Sequence record: SRR20825019_616
Reading direction: 5' to 3' (one strand)
Length of the DNA: 56,957 bases
Shown: positions 3,444 to 11,828 of the stretch, piece by piece
Numbering within the stretch: the first letter of the stretch is position 1
Layout of the letters: each line of letters opens with the position of its first letter
The notes under the pieces: generated by a model
Told to the model about the DNA's origin: nothing
The model's database searches: none
The model's input: the letters and a program-made list of their open reading frames with translations, nothing else
Translations under genes and position numbers: made by a program

Positions 3444-3482
3444 ATCACCGTCGGATTAGGCCGAAGCATGTGCGTATGTCAT

Positions 3483-3509
3483 AAAAAAGGCTGCCCCTGT
3501 TGGGCAGCC
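3483..3509 (-). terminator. Intrinsic terminator of the rhodanese gene
   Basis: GGCTGCCC/GGGCAGCC stem with an A6 run on + (U-tract on minus). Confidence 0.75.
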
Positions 3510-3540
3510 CTTGAGATTCATCCTCCACTACTACAACCGG

Positions 3541-3867
3541 TCAAGCGGCACGTTTCCGGCTAAACCAGTCCTCGGTGCCGCCTTCATAGTCGTAGACTTC
3601 CGTAAAGCCGGCATCTTCCAGCTTCTTGGCAGCCTTGGGAGAAGCATCACATTCGAAGTTCGCGCAGTAGACAACAATTTTCCGGTCTTTGCTGCCGGTA
3701 ACTGCCTCGACCTGTTCCAAAAAGGACGGTTCCTCCACAGGAACACTGATGGATGTGCGGATATGTTCTCGGTTGAAGGCATCCCTCGGCAGGACATTGA
3801 TGAGCACAAAATCTTCGTGCTCGGTTTCGTTCATCTGTTTGAGGTCGTCACGGCTAATACTCTTCAT
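3541..3867 (-). CDS. Rhodanese-like domain protein
   Basis: LINVLPRDAFNREHI, IVVYCANFECDAS, GFTEVYDYEGGTEDW; AAGGAG RBS. Confidence 0.88.
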   Translation of the reverse strand: MKSISRDDLKQMNETEHEDFVLINVLPRDAFNREHIRTSISVPVEEPSFLEQVEAVTGSKDRKIVVYCANFECDASPKAAKKLEDAGFTEVYDYEGGTEDWFSRKRAA

Positions 3868-3939
3868 AGCGTTTCTCCTTCGTTAAGGAAATGGCTACCT
3901 CACTATCTAATGATGGTTTGAGACGCGATTTCAAGGTCG

Positions 3940-5097
3940 TTAGCGGCCATCCTCCCGATAGAAAGCACGGCTTTTCTCGTAAACGGCCGCCATATCAATC
4001 AGGACAAAGCCCAGCTCCGATTCATGCAGGAAGAAGGTGTAAGTCTCTTCTGAGGGAAGGCTCTGCCAATATTCAGGGATATTGCTTTCCCGTTGGTCGA
4101 TCGCAGGGTAATGCGAATGTTCAAAGTAGCCGGTTTCAGTGTTGTCGTAGGCAACGGACAGTGGTTCGGGGGATACCACCAACGCGTACCGCTGAAGACT
4201 GGGATAGGTAGCGGCGAAGGCGATGATACAGAGCAGGGCAGCAAGGCCGAAGCGCTCTGCTCGGGGAGCACCTTTACCCAGTTGAACCCCCAAAACACCG
4301 AGCAGCAGCGCGGTTGAAATGAATGGCCAAAGTGGCAAGTCACCAATCACGAGATAGTTGGTGAGCAGTACGTAGTCAACGAGAGCATAGGTGCCGAGCA
4401 CAGCCAGCAGAATTAGCTGCAGCACCATGCCTTTGTGTTTCAATAAGTTGAAATGGTTGGCCAATGGCCCGGTTCTATCAGTTTGGGTTGACGTAAAGTC
4501 CACGTTGCCGGTGATTCCAGACAGAGCTTTGACAAGAGGGGCCTCGGTAATGATGGATTCCAACCTCGCCTTGGGCTTCCCAAAGGCGCTGCCCATGCCG
4601 ATACGGTGATCCGGGTGGCCCTCTCTCAAAAAATGGTAGGGTTGCAGACGATAGGTCCGCCTGTCGGTAACGAGACTGAGTTTTGACTGCTGAAGTGCCT
4701 GAGCCATATTCCGGAATCCCGTAACGGCGGTCAGCTCAACTTTCCGGATCGCATTTAACGGAATGCGGTGGTCTCCGGTGGTGAATCCCATTAGCCCGAG
4801 GCCGGTCAACCGCGGGATGTGAATCGTCAGATTCTCGCTGTCCAGTTCCAGCCAGACCCGGCGATTAACAAACGCCACGACGCAACCCAGCAGCAGACAC
4901 AACGCAATTAGGTGCAGTTCGAAAGGCACGTTACCGTGTTCGTCCGGGTATAGTTGGCTGAAGTCCAGTTCACCGAGGTTGGGCAGTGCCAATAGCAGCA
5001 GACTTCCAAGCAAAATCGTCAGCAAGGCTCCGATTGTTGCAAACAGGTGGCTGGGTTTGAGAATGCTGGCAGAGTAACGAAAGCGCTGTTTACCCAT
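3940..5097 (-). CDS. Hypothetical membrane protein
   Basis: 385-aa ORF with about 5 hydrophobic segments; no family recognised. Confidence 0.7.
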   Translation of the reverse strand: MGKQRFRYSASILKPSHLFATIGALLTILLGSLLLLALPNLGELDFSQLYPDEHGNVPFELHLIALCLLLGCVVAFVNRRVWLELDSENLTIHIPRLTGLGLMGFTTGDHRIPLNAIRKVELTAVTGFRNMAQALQQSKLSLVTDRRTYRLQPYHFLREGHPDHRIGMGSAFGKPKARLESIITEAPLVKALSGITGNVDFTSTQTDRTGPLANHFNLLKHKGMVLQLILLAVLGTYALVDYVLLTNYLVIGDLPLWPFISTALLLGVLGVQLGKGAPRAERFGLAALLCIIAFAATYPSLQRYALVVSPEPLSVAYDNTETGYFEHSHYPAIDQRESNIPEYWQSLPSEETYTFFLHESELGFVLIDMAAVYEKSRAFYREDGR

Positions 5098-5167
5098 GGT
5101 TCAATGTCGTCCCTGAATCTGTATCCGTGAGTTAGAAGTGTATGATAGATAAAGAGGAGTCCCTATT

Positions 5168-6883
5168 ATGTTAACGCGACATCATTTGGAAATGCCTACA
5201 ACGGTCGCGACCCTCGACGATCTCGCACCGCTGGCAGACTATTCACTCATGGACACGCTCAACTGCGACCCTGAGGGGAAAGCAAACGGAGCTGATCACG
5301 CGCCAAGACAAGTCTTCTCGGGCCACTATGTTCCGGTTAGCCCCACGCCCATCGAAAACCCCGAATACGTCGCCCATGGGAAAAACCTGTTTCACGAACT
5401 GGGTTTCGCCGACAGCATGGCGCAGTCCAGCGACTTCATCCGTATGTTCTCCGGCGACTTGTCGCATGTTCCGGAGCCTCTGCGTAACGTGGGGTGGGCG
5501 TGTGGCTACGCACTTTCCATCTACGGCACCGAATTCTACCAACAATGCCCGTTCCAGACTGGCAATGGCTACGGCGACGGCCGCGCGATTTCCGTGCTCG
5601 AGGCTGTCATCAACAAGCAGCGCTGGGAAATGCAGTTAAAAGGGGCAGGGCGCACGCCCTACTGCCGCGGCGCAGACGGCCGGGCAGTTCTGCGTTCCAG
5701 TGTGCGGGAGTTCCTGGCCCAAGAGCATATGCACGCGCTGGGCGTGCCCACGTCACGGTCTCTGAGTCTGTACGTGTCGACAACCGAGAAAGTCAGGCGC
5801 CCCTGGTATTCGGAGGGTTCACGCTCGGTAGATCCCGATATTCTTGTATCCGAGCCAGTGGCCATCTCGACACGTGTTGCACCTTCGTTCATTCGGGTAG
5901 GGCAGCTGGAGCTCTTTAGTCGTCGTGCCCGCAAGCAGGAACACCCCCAGGCGATGGAGGAGCTCGAGAGGATCGTATTGCACCTGATTGATCGCGAGTA
6001 CGATGACGTTATCGATCGGTCGCGGACCACAGCTGAAAAAGTGGTGTCGCTCGCACATGAGTTCCGCAGACGACTGACCTCGCTTGTCGCCAACTGGATC
6101 CGTGTTGGCTACTGCCAGGGTAACTTCAACAGCGACAACTGTGCCGCGGGCGGCTTCACGCTCGACTATGGACCCTTCGGGTTCTGCGATGTGTTTGATC
6201 CGCAGTACCAGCCATGGACGGGCGGGGGAAATCACTTCGCGTTCCTCAACCAACCAGCAGCAGCCGAACGCAATTTCTACTCGTTCTGTTCGGCGGTTCG
6301 GCCTTTGTTGGCAGGGCATCCAGAGTGTCTACAGCAGCTGGAGGACATTCAAAGTGATTTCCCAAAGGTGATGCAGGCGCAAATGGAGACGATGTGGGCG
6401 GCCAAACTCGGACTCGACGCATTTGACGCGGCTTTATTCCGCGAGCTGGCAACACTGATGATGCAGACGCCTGTTGATTACACCATGTTCTTCCGGGAAC
6501 TCTCATCGTTGCCAGATGACATTGAGCCACTCAAGAAGAGCTTCTACAAAGGCCCGACCTATGCTGCAGATCCCGAAGGGCTAGACAAGCGTTGGTCTGC
6601 GTGGCTCACAAATTGGCAATCGCTCACTCAACACCGCTCCCGTGAAGAGCTTTCCAGTCAAATGAAGCGCGTCAACCCGAAGTACAGCTTGAGAGAGTGG
6701 TTTGTTGTACCCGCCTATCAGCAAGCGGCAGCGGGGAATTACGCTTTGCTGCGGGAACTGCAGGACGTGATGACGCAGCCGTACGCCGAGCAATCAGAGG
6801 CAGTAGAGAAAAAATACTACAGGCTGAAGCCGCTGGAGCTCTTTGAGGTTGGCGGTTGTTCGCATTACAGCTGCTCGTCGTGA
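5168..6883 (+). CDS. selO: Protein adenylyltransferase SelO/YdiU family
   Basis: [50 protein letters not shown]-terminal SCSS. Confidence 0.93.
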
Positions 6884-6909
6884 CGGGTTTCCGCGCAGCC
6901 GGAAATTTC

Positions 6910-7533
6910 TTAACTTCGCTGCATCGTTGATGTAAACGCAGCAGCGCCAAACATTGCCATGCCTCCCAGTCTATTGAGCCGTCTTCGGGCCGGGAGGCTT
7001 TGAATCTTATGGCGAACTGCCCCAGCGAAGAGCGCAAATGATGTAATAGATATCGAGACGACGCCCAAAAACGTCACCATTAATATGAGTAACTGTGGAA
7101 CAGCCGGTACTTCGGGATTAACAAACTGAGGAAAAAAAGCAACGAAAAAGACAATATCCTTTGGGTTCAGTGCTGTAACGAGAAAAGAGGACTTGAACAG
7201 GTTCGCTGATGACATCCCTGGAGCTGATAACGACGGCAGATCACGCTGAGGCACTTCGCGCCAGACCTTTATACCAAGGTAAACCAGATACCCAACCCCA
7301 AACCATTTTAGGATTAGGAAAAGCGTCGCTGAAGTCGCTAAAACAGCACCTAGACCAATCAAGGACAACGTCATTGCCACCAAGTCACCAATTAAAACGC
7401 CAAAAACCAGTGGAATAACAGATTTTTTCCCGTGACTGATAGACTGACCAAGCACCAAGATCACAGTTGGCCCGGGGATGATGGCAAAGATGAAGACCAC
7501 AGATACAAAGGTTATCCAGATCTCAAGAGTCAT
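6910..7533 (-). CDS. LysE/RhtB-family amino acid exporter
   Basis: IIPGP, LKWFGVGYLVYLG, TALNPK motifs; about 6 TM segments. Confidence 0.9.
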   Translation of the reverse strand: MTLEIWITFVSVVFIFAIIPGPTVILVLGQSISHGKKSVIPLVFGVLIGDLVAMTLSLIGLGAVLATSATLFLILKWFGVGYLVYLGIKVWREVPQRDLPSLSAPGMSSANLFKSSFLVTALNPKDIVFFVAFFPQFVNPEVPAVPQLLILMVTFLGVVSISITSFALFAGAVRHKIQSLPARRRLNRLGGMAMFGAAAFTSTMQRS

Positions 7534-7650
7534 AGCGTGTCCTTGTTTGGGGACCCGGCCTTTGGCCGGGTTCTTTTATGATGGTTATTATTCAGGACGC
7601 TTTACCGCAGAGAATCGTGACTAGATGCTTGCCCAGCAAGCATAACTCAT

Positions 7651-8451
7651 CTAAAGCTGTTTCAACTGGTCATTTGAAAAATGTGGGGAGACACAGGTTG
7701 CGGTTGGTGATTCTATATATCGACGATAAGCCTCGATACCGTTAGCGCTCTCTGTGTTACTTAATACGGCACCATTTCGAAGCATGACACTGACCTCCTG
7801 TTCATTTGTTACGATCTTAATGCTCACAGGCATGTATAGCTGATCAATCAGAGCCATTTGCGTAACTTTTCCCATTTGAACGACTTTTCCGGTTGATGAC
7901 CACAGCCTGAAGTTCTCCGGCATCCGGGTTATCCGGTCTATTTTCTGCTCTAGTTTGAATAGACTGGAGTTTACTACGGGTATTTCCCCTTTTGTCCAAG
8001 TGCTTATCGTAGGGTGGGCGTTGGGAGCTACAATGTTGTCGAAAGGGGCATGAGTCCAGGCAACCATTCTAAGGGTGGCAGGAAGGGTAAAGTAGTCGTT
8101 GAGTGACTCCATACAGCTAACCTCTGATTTTCCATTTTGAATTTCGTGGAAGCTCCAGCTTTCTATCAGACCTGCCTCAGTTTTTGTTCTTCGATGTATC
8201 AGCATGTTGTATCCGCGATGATGCACATCGTATAGAACGAAACCGGAAACAACAGAGCCACTCGAACGTTTCTGTATTAGTGTAAAATCAACATACTCAG
8301 TTGAACCGTTGAGTTGTGTTGCTATTTCTCCATCAGCAATGTACCAGTTCGTATCCGAGCGATTGGTTCCAGCGGTATTGATTTCAATCGATTGGCCGCA
8401 GCCTGCGATTCCGATACCTAATGCAACCACTAGCATGGCGAGGATCTTCAT
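7651..8451 (-). CDS. Hypothetical lipoprotein
   Basis: Likely start MKILAMLVVALGIGIAG-C at 8451 with AAGGAG RBS and lipobox; visibly AT-richer than neighbours. Confidence 0.65.
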   Translation of the reverse strand: MKILAMLVVALGIGIAGCGQSIEINTAGTNRSDTNWYIADGEIATQLNGSTEYVDFTLIQKRSSGSVVSGFVLYDVHHRGYNMLIHRRTKTEAGLIESWSFHEIQNGKSEVSCMESLNDYFTLPATLRMVAWTHAPFDNIVAPNAHPTISTWTKGEIPVVNSSLFKLEQKIDRITRMPENFRLWSSTGKVVQMGKVTQMALIDQLYMPVSIKIVTNEQEVSVMLRNGAVLSNTESANGIEAYRRYIESPTATCVSPHFSNDQLKQL

Positions 8452-8743
8452 AATTTGCTCCTTGAAAGCTTGGATTTCAAATATATGAATCGGAGCAGTA
8501 CGGAATCCATCTATTAATATACGACTGCTATTAACAAATGTTTGATGCAGCTGATTGGAGGGTTCGTTACGTTTGTTCTGGTGGTTCAACCGATCTTATT
8601 TTTGAGAACACAATTGTGGATGCTTACGCACCGAGATCTGAGGCGAGTGACGCGAATCAAAACTCTGTTGGAAGAGATTGGGGATAGAATTACCCTGAAT
8701 TGATCGGAGGTAAACAAATCTCTACCAAGGTTGAAGCACAAGT

Positions 8744-8771
8744 ACTGCGCATAATGTATATTTAGAGGTCT
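8744..8771 (+). other. Degenerate dif-like site (attL-like): intact XerC arm and spacer, decayed XerD arm
   Basis: ACTGCGCATAA-TGTATA-TTTAGAGGTCT; 20 bp (8743-8762) identical to 9468-9487. Confidence 0.85.
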
Positions 8772-8792
8772 GTTTTTAAAGGGGTTTTCGGG

Positions 8793-8984
8793 TCACACCC
8801 TGTGCGAAATATCGATCCCAAAAGTCGACAGTAGTTCCCGTTTATGGCGGTAGTAGGTTTCGCGGGACATCAGGAAGTAGGGGTTGTATCCCATCAGCCA
8901 AGTGACATAGGTTCCCCGCAATTTGACCGGCAAACGCAGGAAGGTGAGTTGCTGATCTTTGGTCATTGAGAAATGGGCAGGCAT
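8793..8984 (-). CDS. Filamentous phage/plasmid replication protein gene II/X C-terminal-like peptide (fragment or small gene)
   Basis: LPVKLRGTYVTWLMGYNPYFLMSRETYYRHKRELLSTFGIDI resembles the C-terminal signature of gene II/X-family Reps; no nicking domain; start uncertain (ATG 8984 or 8966; track ORF extends to 9107). Confidence 0.65.
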   Translation of the reverse strand: MPAHFSMTKDQQLTFLRLPVKLRGTYVTWLMGYNPYFLMSRETYYRHKRELLSTFGIDISHRV

Positions 8985-9235
8985 GGCTCTGTCGTCAGTG
9001 GGAATCCCGCCACGGCGTTTAATCGCCGTCCAGAGAAGGCCTACAGTGGAATCAACCCGGCAAGGCCGGGTTCGATATTCCCCCAGGTGAAGAATTCGCC
9101 TGGGCATACCAAGCAGGCTTTAAGAATGAGAAATCCCACATCATCGGCGTTGGCGCACCTAGTGGGATCGGGATCTCAAAATGGACTACAGGAGAAGTTT
9201 ACACCGAAATCTCAGGTACGGAAGTTGGCAGATGG

Positions 9236-9260
9236 ACCCCCTTGCTCTAATAGGGGGGGT
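9236..9260 (+). other. Putative Rep_trans-type rolling-circle double-strand origin hairpin
   Basis: ACCCCCTTGCTCTAATAGGGGGGGT: C-run/G-run stem with CTCTAATA loop, like pT181 dso and ICEBs1/Tn916 oriT nick hairpins. Confidence 0.65.
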
Positions 9261-9468
9261 ACAAACTCCAAAATCGGGTAACCCCCTCGAATTTCAGTTC
9301 AATGAGAGAGCCCGAAAACCCCGCAAAGCCACGTATCACAAGGGTTACAGGCGAACTCATGGTGTAATGGACTGCTTTTGAGCCAGTGGCTAAACAAGGG
9401 GGGCACCCGCGTGCGGGGGGTTCCTTGTTGCCAGAACGTCCCTAAATCGACCTAAAGTCACACCCCAT

Positions 9469-9496
9469 ACTGCGCATAATGTATATTATGTTAAAT
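9469..9496 (+). other. dif: Chromosomal dif site (XerC/XerD)
   Basis: ACTGCGCATAA-TGTATA-TTATGTTAAAT, 26/28 identical to E. coli dif GGTGCGCATAATGTATATTATGTTAAAT; KOPS converge on it. Confidence 0.95.
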
Positions 9497-9578
9497 GGTG
9501 TACGTAGCTCTTTAAAGGTAGAAACAGCAGCCCCGGTCAAATTCCCCTCTCTTCCCATACGCCACCTTCTTCAAACCA

Positions 9579-9609
9579 TTGACTCTGCAGCTACTGCAGG
9601 GTTTTTGAT
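9579..9609 (+). promoter_or_regulatory. MerR-family (CadR/PbrR-type) promoter-operator
   Basis: -35 TTGACT, 19-bp spacer, -10 TTTGAT, dyad ACTCTGCAG-CTA-CTGCAGGGT across the spacer. Confidence 0.75.
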
Positions 9610-9648
9610 ACCCACTGACGGCGCAGATTTAATGGGAGCATTTCTGAA

Positions 9649-10035
9649 ATGAAAACTGAACTGAAACAGGCTTATAACGTGGAACTCACCGCGGCGTGCG
9701 AAGCTGAAGAGTCGCGTAACTTTTCAAAGGCGTTCGCCCACCTTGAGCGAGCTCATATTCTGAGCCAGAAGTATGCTTGGGCGCACACAAGGACCCACAT
9801 TCGCATGCTCAAACTCGGCTGGCGTACGCGTGACATGCGGGAAGTCGTTGGGCAGCTTACTCGAACGTTCGCCGCCTTGTTGTTTTCTCGCATATGGGTT
9901 CCCGTTGGAAATACCGGGCGTGCGAACGTCAGTCCGTTTGCGCCAATGCCTTTGCCAGAAGACCTCGCTCGTGTGCTTTATAAAGAGAGCCATCACCTCA
10001 CCAGGCTGAAGGATAAAAACACCGACTACGGCTAG
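9649..10035 (+). CDS. DUF3703 domain protein
   Basis: AFAHLERAHILSQ, HTRTHIRML, PVGNTGRANVSPFAPMPLPEDL. Confidence 0.85.
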   Translation: MKTELKQAYNVELTAACEAEESRNFSKAFAHLERAHILSQKYAWAHTRTHIRMLKLGWRTRDMREVVGQLTRTFAALLFSRIWVPVGNTGRANVSPFAPMPLPEDLARVLYKESHHLTRLKDKNTDYG

Positions 10036-10038
10036 CCG

Positions 10039-10746
10039 TTAATCGACGTAACCACCCACAGCCTGCAGAATCGTCTGTGAATTGTTGGGTGTTACCCAGG
10101 CCGCGATGGCATTTCGTTTCTGCCCTTTTTCGGGGAACTCTGGAAGTGTAACGGTCCAGCTTTTCTCTCCAGGTACTGTTATTAACTTCAACACCACGAA
10201 ATCGTGTGTGAGTTCCCGGCCGCGGTTTTCTCCAGCTTTCACGGATGTTGTTAACCCCATACCGAGTATGGCTATATGCAACTGGCCAGCCTTCTCGCCA
10301 TCAAATTCTGCCTTAAAGCGACGTTTGTCATTAACGCTTGCCCTGAGTACCCCAACCTGTTTGGTGTCGTCTGTCCAGGTTCGTTGCCCTCGAAACCATT
10401 GGCGCCATTCTTTGTTGTTGATAACGATTCCCGGAGTATAAGACTGGCTAACGTGCCCTTCACGCACATAATTCCGCTGGCGTTCGCTATAAGCAGCTTT
10501 TGCGAACGGGTCTTTCCAGCCGATGTAATCCCAGTAGTCAACGTGGAACGCCATTGGAACGAATTCTTTGAACAGCTCAGGGCTGCTCTTCAAAGAGCTC
10601 AGCCAACGATCAGCGGGAGGACAGCTGCTGCATCCCTCTGAAGTAAACAGCTCAACAACGTCGGTTTTACTCGTTCCACTAGTCCACTCTGCAGCGCTGG
10701 CAAACGACGGCAATAAGAAAAGCAATGCAATAAACCATTTTGTCAT
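10039..10746 (-). CDS. DUF1223 secreted thioredoxin-fold protein
   Basis: Signal peptide; VVELFTSEGCSSCPPAD, FHVDYWDYIGWKDPF, GENRGRELTHDFVV. Confidence 0.9.
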   Translation of the reverse strand: MTKWFIALLFLLPSFASAAEWTSGTSKTDVVELFTSEGCSSCPPADRWLSSLKSSPELFKEFVPMAFHVDYWDYIGWKDPFAKAAYSERQRNYVREGHVSQSYTPGIVINNKEWRQWFRGQRTWTDDTKQVGVLRASVNDKRRFKAEFDGEKAGQLHIAILGMGLTTSVKAGENRGRELTHDFVVLKLITVPGEKSWTVTLPEFPEKGQKRNAIAAWVTPNNSQTILQAVGGYVD

Positions 10747-10970
10747 GTGAACCTCTCATCGGATTAGCCATCTGTATTAATGGATCAGAGCAAGAGGTGC
10801 CTGCTTTGGTTCCTCCCCAAACATAACGTTTCTATAACACTTGGTGACGGTTCTTCGCCGGTTGTCGTTTACATAATGTTGCGAGAAACATGGCTTTGTC
10901 ATGTTTGCGAGGTTTGATGACGGTATAAAATGTGGATCCTCCAACGCAAGAATTTCGGGATTTTGGACAA

Positions 10971-11828
10971 ATGAAAGGCCAAAAGAGATGCCGGTACTTT
11001 CAGTACCTACAGCACCTAATGATTCTGATATTTGTGTCGTTTAGTCCGACGTTGCTTGGAGCGAACACCATCAAAATCAGCACCGGGCACTGGCCGCCGT
11101 ACCTGAGCGAAGATCTACCTGGTGGCGGTTTTGTCTCCCAGATTATTCGTGAATCCTTTGAAAGCGAAGGTGTCGACGTAGAGTTTGCATTTCTTCCCTG
11201 GTCGCGGGCGCTGGCAATGACCAAATCGGGAAAATATCAGGCCTCGGCGATCTGGTCTTGCACCGAATCAAGAAGCCGTGACTTCCTGTTCTCTTCTCCT
11301 TTACTGCCCTATCAATACGTTTTCTATCACCGCACTGCTGAGGCTTTTGACTGGGAAGCCCTTGTAGAGTTGAAAGGAAAGAAAGTTGGTCTGACACAGG
11401 ATTACAGTTACGGCGAAACACTCAGTGATGTTATTGAGAGTGGTCTCGTCGACGCTGACGTCACCACTTCTGACGCGGCTAATTTCAAGAAGCTGCTCCT
11501 TGGTCGCATTGATTTGTTTCCCATGGACCCCGTTGTGGGTGAAGCGATGATAAGAAACCAGTTTGCTTCCCAGGCTTATCAACTGACGTTTCATCCCAAA
11601 CCACTCCGGAAGGCGTTTTACCACGTGCTGTTTAACGCGGAGTCAGCCGGCCTCAGGCAGGCGTTCAATGATGGATTAGTGACGTTGCGCAACAACGGGA
11701 GGTACCAAGCCATCATTGAAAAAGCGGTCGCCGAGAACAGCACACCAGTAACTGCGCAGATACTGGAAGATAAACTGGTCAACTGGGACGCCAAGGCGGC
11801 GCCCTGCTCCCCTCCTCCTGCCAAATAA
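10971..11828 (+). CDS. Periplasmic substrate-binding protein (family 3-like), orphan
   Basis: TGHWPPY, FLPWSRA, FKKLLLGRIDL, FNDGL motifs; start uncertain (10932/10971). Confidence 0.85.
   Translation: MKGQKRCRYFQYLQHLMILIFVSFSPTLLGANTIKISTGHWPPYLSEDLPGGGFVSQIIRESFESEGVDVEFAFLPWSRALAMTKSGKYQASAIWSCTESRSRDFLFSSPLLPYQYVFYHRTAEAFDWEALVELKGKKVGLTQDYSYGETLSDVIESGLVDADVTTSDAANFKKLLLGRIDLFPMDPVVGEAMIRNQFASQAYQLTFHPKPLRKAFYHVLFNAESAGLRQAFNDGLVTLRNNGRYQAIIEKAVAENSTPVTAQILEDKLVNWDAKAAPCSPPPAK

Follow-up and report, generated by a model that had tools for sequence, protein, structure and literature searches.

An element bounded by two Xer sites

The DNA analysed here is a stretch of 56,957 nucleotides from sequence record SRR20825019_616, referred to below as the window. 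Its subject is a 725-bp element that ends at dif, the Xer recombination site of the chromosome, and that has homologues in the genus Marinobacter. The element is bounded by a 20-mer that the window contains exactly twice, at + strand positions 8743-8762 and 9468-9487, and no further site appears when up to three mismatches are allowed; none of 100 dinucleotide shuffles of the window contained any match to it. The original prediction for this locus, made from the letters alone, had placed the two copies at 8743 and 9468, 725 bp apart, and had described the left one as a site with a decayed XerD arm and the right one as a complete dif. The positions are borne out by the search, and the description of the arms agrees with direct reading, with the nearest genome (G001) and with the other copies of the element. 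The features on which the argument rests are as follows.

8744 to 8771, + strand: attL, a hybrid site in which the XerC arm ACTGCGCATAA and the central region TGTATA are followed by a right arm that is not that of dif, TTTAGAGGTCT (direct reading)
9469 to 9496, + strand: attR, which is the full 28-bp chromosomal dif, ACTGCGCATAA-TGTATA-TTATGTTAAAT (direct reading and other genomes)
8744 to 9468, + strand: a single unit of 725 bp, which begins with attL and stops at the base before the XerC arm of dif (homology with the copy in G015 breaks exactly at both ends)
8793 to 8984 with the stop codon included, - strand: the only conserved gene, which encodes a 63-aa protein of the G2P_X_C or gene X kind and is convergent on attL (Pfam, PHROGs, selection and structural model)

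The central regions of the two sites are identical, and the right arm of the left copy agrees with that of dif at 4 of 11 positions and differs at 7 of 11. This composition, in which the XerC arm and centre are those of dif and the right arm is degenerate, is found in 12 distinct copies of the element. Within the degenerate arm, the motif RGTCTG stands in the same register from the central region in all relatives, which come from four host groups (including Neptunicella, Paraglaciecola and the provirus G409).

The 28-mer is identified as the chromosomal dif because it stands alone in G001, without the element and with an identical 48-bp right flank, because it is the terminus of every other full copy, and because the cumulative GC skew of the window peaks at about 9-13 kb, as expected at a replication terminus. 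The bounding Xer sites are direct repeats on the chromosome. The element has no recombinase gene of its own: the 63-aa open reading frame (ORF) is the only one conserved, and neither Pfam nor PHROGs finds an integrase. The same two databases gave no match in the interior to a replication protein (Rep), a capsid protein, Zot or DUF3653 (the XafT family). An interior of this kind, without a full Rep, capsid or XafT gene and with origin-like hairpins and a gene X-like peptide of about 60 aa, had been described beforehand, and the hairpins and the peptide are both real.

The single conserved gene

Frames drawn from stop to stop vary between copies of the element, and the conserved part is a 63-codon ORF that starts at an ATG present in all copies (8984 to 8793). 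Its product matches the Pfam family G2P_X_C (PF05155) with a score of 28.7 bits, above the cut-off of 25 (E 2e-6; positions 9-55 of the 88-position profile), a 104-aa reading of the ORF matches the same family at 26.9 bits, and PHROG replication-protein families match the 63-aa ORF as well (phrog_17464). The proteins of the five genome copies are 94-97% identical. The ratio of nonsynonymous to synonymous divergence (dN/dS) is 0.03-0.14, and the variable columns are distributed over the three codon positions as 6/1/26, with 26 of 33 at the third. The gene is under strong purifying selection. The element had been described as a parasite that acts in cis only, and this part of the original prediction did not stand, because one protein gene is kept under such selection.

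An exhaustive profile search of 1.84 billion representative proteins returned 66 matches. The closest of these are stand-alone proteins of 51-79 aa, and the next-closest are the C-termini of Reps of about 340 aa that combine Phage_CRI and G2P_X_C domains. A word-based search for longer homologues of the 63-aa protein found none, and the only protein matches in a phage database were gene II/X of phage I2-2 and one other record. An AlphaFold model of the protein consists of three helices, with a mean predicted local distance difference test (pLDDT) score of 90.6. Among viral models (BFVD), the best match is to the G2P of an inovirus, with 38% identity over 57 columns (E 0.018, probability 1.00, TMq 0.70). 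A Foldseek search of the PDB with the model gave nothing at E below 3, and a wide structure comparison with the PDB gave a best Z of 5.1, to sigma-factor region 4 and other helix-turn-helix (HTH) domains, which is too weak to name a fold. A scan for terminators found one terminator-like site, as chance predicts.

A family of units of one size

The search for further copies covered 191 Marinobacter species genomes, and a DNA search matched 13 of them: full-length copies are present in four and fragments in the nine others. The full copies are 89% (G015), 84% (G118), 81% (G190) and 78% (G048) identical to the element of the window, and their spacing from attL to dif is 725 bp in G015 and G118, 726 bp in G190 and 716 bp in G048. 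When the G015 locus is aligned with the window, the two are 88% identical inside the element and cannot be aligned outside the outer edge of attL or past the last base of dif. Metagenome contigs, scanned with the small protein, provided 14 loci, nine of which combine the hybrid site with dif at a spacing of 715-756 bp; the value of 756 bp comes from one contig with obvious homopolymer expansions, and the other unit sizes are 715-727 bp. The remaining five are two that reach the end of their contig (L054 and L050), a partial one with attL plus about 215 bp only (L063), one without dif (L051) and a larger relative (L061); in L050 and L051 the element stops at position ~678, with no dif. Whole-element identity between copies, non-coding parts included, is 72-94%. 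A plasmid database of 72,556 records held no match to the element, and the phage database held no DNA match to it.

The 12 distinct full copies all have different 8-nt sequences before attL and after dif, so a unique random deletion cannot account for the unit. Such a deletion relic had been offered as the alternative in the original prediction, and it is rejected by the recurring unit size, by exact boundaries in at least 12 contexts and by the selection on the gene. The comparison of dif loci in relatives, which had been proposed as a check, found an empty site in G001 and elements of the same size in 4 genomes and on 9 metagenome contigs.

Recent mobility and horizontal spread

Several observations bear on how recently the element has moved. 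Genome G048, which is a single contig, carries five head-to-tail copies that are identical to one another over all 716 bp (0 differences); the internal junctions are the hybrid site and the last one is dif. Genome G001 is 97-98% identical to the window in the DNA that they share, yet its dif is empty. Among other public sequencing runs, for which contigs were searched for presence only, dif and its right flank are found with three other left neighbours, one of which is G001-like.

The pairwise synonymous divergence (dS) of the 63-aa gene among carriers is 0.10-0.78. For the host xerD of these genomes, where G001 represents the window, dS ranges from 1.28 to saturation, at 70-81% nucleotide identity, and the element gene is less diverged than xerD in all ten pairs. 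A gene so much less diverged than xerD of the host points to horizontal spread, and by this comparison the element is far more recent than the genomes that carry it. The family to which the 725-bp unit belongs is discrete, has been mobile recently and has moved between species.

Relatives that encode a replication protein

Three larger elements with the same small gene were found, and each of them encodes a Rep. The first, L061, is a metagenome contig of 2367 bp whose ends overlap by 12 nt inside its att site, as expected of a circle or of a tandem unit. This att has the XerC arm and the central region of Marinobacter, followed by TTTAGGGGTCT. The contig encodes a small ORF 92% identical to that of the 725-bp element, a 61-aa ORF and, on the opposite strand, a 344-aa Rep with Phage_CRI and G2P_X_C domains. 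Homology between L061 and the 725-bp element covers att, the gene and the hairpins at 9014-9104 (79.7% in 365 nt), and L061 shares its data-set prefix with L052, a copy of the 725-bp element.

The second relative is a unit of 3146 bp in Neptunicella sp., present as two tandem copies, with a Rep, an HTH_3 repressor, a membrane protein and a 67-aa small ORF that ends about 20 bp before the att site. The XerC arm of this att tracks the host's own dif (ATTCCTATAA vs AGTTCCTATAA), the central hexamer is identical and the right arm is degenerate. The array (L044, compared at 800-1830 vs 3946-4977) is some 41 kb away from dif, and clean att sites are lacking at its outer ends; in one copy the Rep is split into frames of 191 aa and 170 aa, and in the other copy the HTH repressor is split. 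The third relative, G409, is an IMG/VR provirus of 6972 bp with overlapping ends that carries a Rep, Zot, coat-like genes and, antisense to Rep, a 66-aa small ORF that ends about 40 bp before the att ACCGCCCATAA-TGTATG-ATAAGGAGTCTGG. A profile scan of IMG/VR with the Marinobacter alignment had no match, and G409 was found with another alignment.

Across these elements the small proteins are 60-72% identical, compared with 29.5% for the two Reps compared and 32-44% for the small protein against the Rep C-terminus; the small proteins form a conserved orthologous group of their own. The Rep-encoding relatives keep the separate small gene next to att and antisense to Rep, although their Rep has the same domain. 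The relatives share their terminal module, namely the small gene and att, with the 725-bp element.

Conserved hairpins and a candidate origin

Covariation was analysed on an alignment of 14 rows, 12 of them distinct, with the RNAalifold structure of columns 240-790. The non-coding part of the element contains the following conserved hairpins.

9014 to 9027, + strand: hairpin GGCG-TTTAAT-CGCC, upstream of the gene and common to L061 (helix 4, in which 4 of 4 pairs never vary)
9050 to 9104, + strand: two hairpins with compensatory changes, 9050-9079 and 9082-9104 (alignment columns 316-345 and 351-375; helices 8 and 9)
9133 to 9168, + strand: nested hairpin with compensatory changes (alignment columns 404-439 and 417-430; helices 10 and 11)
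9236 to 9258, + strand: near-invariant hairpin with the loop TGCTCTAATA and then G, a candidate nick site of a (+)-strand origin (helix 15, with one unpaired cell)
9393 to 9429, + strand: large hairpin about 40 nt before the XerC arm (helices 22 and 23, with 2 compensatory pairs and with 100% and 96.7% of cells paired)

In the RNAalifold structure 91.9% of cells are paired, a fraction that is inflated because the structure was derived from the same sequences. Pairs changed on both sides number 21, compared with 12.3 in column shuffles (0 of 500 reach 21) and with 5-9 when the partners are slid by 1-3 columns. These changes are concentrated in the hairpins at 9050-9079, 9082-9104, 9133-9168 and 9393-9429. 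Helix 8 contributes three such pairs, with 99.3% of its cells paired, and helix 9 one, with 99.2%; helices 10 and 11 contribute two each, with 97.6% and 95.0%. The hairpins at 9014-9027 and 9236-9258 are uninformative for covariation because they are invariant or nearly so. A pattern for the 9393-9429 hairpin was found in 8 of the 191 genomes, where all matches are copies or fragments of the element and none lies in a Zot-bearing prophage, and a large hairpin occupies the same position before the XerC arm in L061, Neptunicella and G409. Searches of Rfam gave one match only, below threshold (19.3 bits vs 50).

The loop of the 9236-9258 hairpin holds the single occurrence of CTYTAATAG in the 57-kb window. 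The motif also occurs once in the intergenic region of M13, in the hairpin GTCCAC-GTTCTTTAATA-GTGGAC, which we take to be the gene II nick site, and once in L061, in the hairpin loop GCGCAC-ATACTTTAATA-GTGCGC, on the strand in the sense of Rep and about 150 nt before attP. Its background across all loci is at most 0.027 per kb of strand, and it is absent from the Neptunicella element, G409 and I2-2. The 9236-9258 hairpin is a good lead as the origin at which a Rep would nick.

Truncated copies and flanking DNA

Fragments of the element occur in several arrangements. In five genomes (L022 8205-8430 in G133, and L009-L012), an identical left context, ATTAAACT, is followed by the hybrid site and 110-220 bp of the 3' end of the gene. 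These fragments abut host esterase and alcohol-dehydrogenase genes, with no dif nearby, and are inherited relics displaced from dif. In G025 (L002/L003, C1 ~113,400-113,500), only the last ~100 bp, from the large hairpin to dif, are present beside dif, with compensatory changes in the stem and no second att within 10 kb; this end fragment is either a relic or a different partner element. The same foreign sequence, with repeated ccacacaaagtgctaaa units, follows the large hairpin of the element in L051 (4400-4560), in L025 (5480-5640) and also in G106 and G107, and it may belong to a different mobile element with an insertion site at the hairpin or close to it. One metagenomic copy adjoins a second, imperfect dif-like site, which is head-to-head with dif (L059 4483-4523).

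The DNA around the element in the window has a history of its own. The 1.9 kb to its left (6884-8742) encode a LysE-like 207-aa ORF and a 312-aa ORF without a Pfam match, are absent from G001 and have a G+C content of 45-46% vs 52-57% around them; this segment may be an older island stacked at dif. To the right, the first gene past dif (9649-10035) encodes a DUF3703 protein (E 2.5e-39), and the flank is 93-98% identical in G001 and in the contigs of other runs. Relative to G001 the window is a mosaic, with 3444-6883 matching at 4.445 Mb, 9540-11000 at 1.718 Mb, and dif with its 48 bp at 4.280 Mb, which indicates large rearrangements around the terminus. The xerD match in G001 (L094, G001:C1:1877612-1878157) is limited to query residues 119-300 in an open frame of 195 aa. 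It could be a truncated gene, or it could stem from faulty assembly or from contamination, which is rated at 6% for this genome.

Proposed mode of spread

The 725-bp unit is probably a live or very recently live, non-autonomous integrative mobile element exploiting Xer recombination (IMEX) of the TLC type. It would use XerC and XerD of the host and be a Rep-less miniature of a lineage that derives from filamentous phages and has a rolling-circle Rep of the pII/Cri type. The original prediction had read the two sites as the attL/attR pair of a TLC-type element far below known sizes, and this is supported by at least 12 contexts, the fivefold array, selection on the gene, low divergence and the Rep-encoding relatives.

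A cycle of the following kind may be proposed. The element would form a circle whose attP consists of the XerC arm and centre of the host dif, with the XerD arm replaced by a conserved sequence that is not that of dif (...RGTCTG). Recombination of attP with dif by XerCD would leave the hybrid site on the left and rebuild a full dif on the right, and since dif is rebuilt there, further copies can enter and tandem arrays can form. What such an element would retain is attP, the 63-aa homologue of a Rep C-terminus, the hairpin with an M13-type nick motif, the large hairpin before attP and the further conserved hairpins. A Rep supplied in trans by a relative of the L061 type may nick the CTCTAATAG hairpin and roll off single-stranded circles, which would be packaged by a filamentous phage and carried in its virion; in a new cell, the circle would be converted to double strand and inserted at dif by XerCD. 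Zot is present in 40 of the 191 Marinobacter genomes and in none of the four full-copy carriers. The L061 type, known from one metagenome contig, is the only candidate donor of Rep, because the 191 genomes contain no Phage_CRI Rep and the carriers no Zot. We infer dependence on a helper phage, and the term satellite is used here in that sense.

The retained 63-aa protein is probably what the element needs when it arrives alone. Our tentative preference is for a protein that assists or activates Xer recombination at the degenerate arm, XafT-like in function and unrelated to XafT in sequence. A role in the Xer step is favoured because this is the only function that an element arriving alone would need. 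The identity of 60-72% among the small proteins, against 29.5% for the Reps, suggests a conserved host partner, and RGTCTG at a fixed register of the degenerate arm in four host groups also counts for the idea. In passages of a report on TLC, attP plus XafT alone is described as enough for integration, and possible Xer activators outside DUF3653 are raised (PMC6744903). A more specific version, which we hold to be speculative and somewhat doubtful, is that the protein is a new Xer activation factor exapted from a Rep C-terminal domain, which binds the RGTCTG arm and recruits or switches on XerD, so that attP and the gene would form a minimal self-sufficient unit. A decoy or immunity role for the protein is also possible.

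Several findings weigh against this account. The array of five copies in G048 rests on one assembly, and single values of dS for the gene are noisy, given 63 codons and about 44 synonymous sites. No circle junction or excised site was present among the contigs of the sequencing runs, although contigs cannot reveal rare forms. The helper search found no Zot and no further G2P_X_C in the four carriers (G015, G048, G118, G190) or in G001, and Phage_CRI in 0 of the 191 Marinobacter genomes; as a positive control, the same search found three in a Neptunicella genome. The right half of the 725-bp element (hairpins H10 to H22) has no BLAST-level homology to L061, so the case for its recognition by the L061 Rep depends on a single hairpin motif of 9 nt. 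When the nick-hairpin region was aligned locally to the origins of M13 and I2-2, the result was no better than with shuffles, the folding energy of the right part of the element is not unusual (z -0.57 and 0.04), and a simple scan for a sigma-70-like promoter of the gene gave 0 sites. Against the Xer-accessory idea in particular, the homology of the 63-aa protein is to replication and not to recombination. PF12375 (DUF3653) had no match in the 63-aa ORF at E<=5 and none on the element in G015, G048, G118 and G190 at E<=10, and a DUF3653 protein from G357 appears unrelated to the 63-aa protein, which has no detectable likeness to XafT.

Alternative explanations

Three other explanations can be weighed against the same evidence. 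That the unit is an inert relic, left when an internal deletion reduced a full-length filamentous prophage at dif to 725 bp and inherited only vertically since, is scarcely credible. Truncated remnants do exist, with attL and 110-220 bp of the gene in G133, G117, G137, G060 and G069, isolated right ends of 190 bp in G069, G106 and G107, and about 100 bp beside dif in G025, and no helper was found in the carriers. Against it stand one unit size with exact boundaries in at least 12 contexts, a dN/dS of 0.03-0.14 in a gene whose dS is far under that of host xerD, five identical tandem copies, and an empty dif in a near-conspecific genome. Another explanation keeps the mobility and removes the phage: a double-stranded circle moved by XerCD would spread by transformation or with other DNA, with neither Rep nor virion, while the hairpins would regulate a gene that is beneficial, for example as a dominant-negative decoy of the Rep domain against Cri-type phages or satellites. 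The count of Cri-type Reps (0 of 191 genomes, with the element in at least five species), the nature of the protein as a stand-alone copy of a Rep domain, and the position of hairpins H4-H9 directly upstream of the gene, common to L061, all fit such a cassette. It nevertheless seems improbable, since it leaves aside an M13-type nick motif inside a near-invariant hairpin and a second large hairpin whose position before attP is conserved in all Rep-encoding relatives, an excess of cis structure for one small gene; five identical tandem copies would also arise most easily from multiple circles.

The last explanation accepts the Rep-less TLC-type element and differs in the role of its protein, which would be a modulator of the helper Rep or of single-strand synthesis, like gene X of Ff phages, and have nothing to do with Xer; integration would then be XerC-first or unassisted. 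Both sequence and fold homology are to the Rep C-terminal or gene X domain, and the weak best likeness in the PDB is to DNA-binding domains of the sigma region 4 and HTH kind (Z 5.1). The Rep-encoding relatives, however, own that domain in their Rep and yet keep a separate small gene by att and antisense to Rep. Identity is 60-72% among the small proteins and 29.5% between the Reps, a contrast not expected of a protein that works with a fast-evolving Rep or origin, and a Rep-less element that meets a helper could borrow the helper's copy. We regard the modulator as unlikely and favour the Xer accessory over it.

Significance and comparison with known systems

The Xer-exploiting elements known so far, whether phages, satellites or islands, are multi-kilobase, and the Marinobacter family shows that such an element can be reduced to an att site, a few hairpins and a gene of 63 codons without losing the ability to spread. 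It makes the question of what an IMEX must encode itself directly testable, and in a marine bacterium that is harmless, and it is a candidate source of an Xer activator outside DUF3653. The graded series from the G409 provirus (6.8 kb) through the Neptunicella unit (3.1 kb) and L061 (2.36 kb) to the 0.72-kb element, with one shared terminal module, is a natural record of how a phage was reduced to a satellite and then to a mini-satellite. For annotation, cryptic elements at dif can be recognised by a marker, namely a small G2P_X_C gene that converges on a half-dif site. If the Xer-activator reading is true, the element would be the smallest natural IMEX and a hyper-parasite of Cri-type satellites and inoviruses. 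A literature search, with subscription journals and supplements outside it, found no description of a sub-kilobase IMEX, of a stand-alone G2P_X_C gene at dif or of an IMEX at dif in Marinobacter.

The pdif modules of Acinetobacter are on plasmids and have inversely oriented sites and cargo genes. One report describes such modules as very small, often with one gene, bounded by Xer sites and presumably mobile by XerCD (PMC7399989). The 725-bp element differs from them in its direct sites, its location at the chromosomal dif and its cis elements of phage type.

Classical miniphages of the Ff phages f1 and M13 are sub-kilobase, keep the origin and packaging hairpins and need gene II protein from a helper. 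They are products of passage in the laboratory that neither integrate nor form conserved lineages. The Marinobacter element resembles them as a sub-kilobase derivative whose nick-loop motif, CTYTAATAG, is common to M13, and differs as a natural, integrating family under selection that extends across species. Its 63-aa protein likewise resembles the Ff gene X protein, since it lies above the cut-off of PF05155 and its model superposes on the C-terminus of inovirus G2P; unlike gene X, it is encoded in the relatives by a separate gene antisense to Rep and is not an internal restart within gene II.

RS1 and the other Rep-encoding satellites of CTX-phi are also reduced derivatives of filamentous phages without structural genes, arranged in tandem at dif and dependent on a helper for packaging, as the 725-bp element would be. 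RS1 retains its own Rep and regulators, and in the 725-bp element Rep is gone and a single 63-aa gene is left.

The closest known system is the TLC-phi satellite of Vibrio cholerae. TLC elements are several kb in size. Both TLC-phi and the Marinobacter element integrate at dif without an integrase, have an attP that is dif-like in the XerC arm and centre and degenerate in the XerD arm, and rebuild a usable dif. An attP with a dif-like XerC arm and centre and a degenerate XerD arm is what defines the TLC type in the relevant passage of PMC4246890. According to a passage of PMC9226527, the attP of TLC differs at 8 positions of the XerD arm, compared with 7 of 11 in the Marinobacter element. The lineage of L061, Neptunicella and G409 also shares with TLC-phi the use of a Cri/pII-type Rep and a small accessory gene at the end of the element. 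The differences lie in the host, Marinobacter, in the size of 0.72 kb, in the lack of Rep, repressor and DUF3653/XafT, and in a G2P_X_C protein that stands alone and is encoded on the side of attP with the degenerate arm. The Cri-type Rep and the repressor are both absent from the 725-bp unit, and Rep is present in L061, Neptunicella and G409. The element thus differs from the TLC type because it has neither a Rep nor a XafT/DUF3653 protein of its own, and it seems to be smaller than any other known relative of those satellites of filamentous phages that make use of the Xer recombinases of their hosts.

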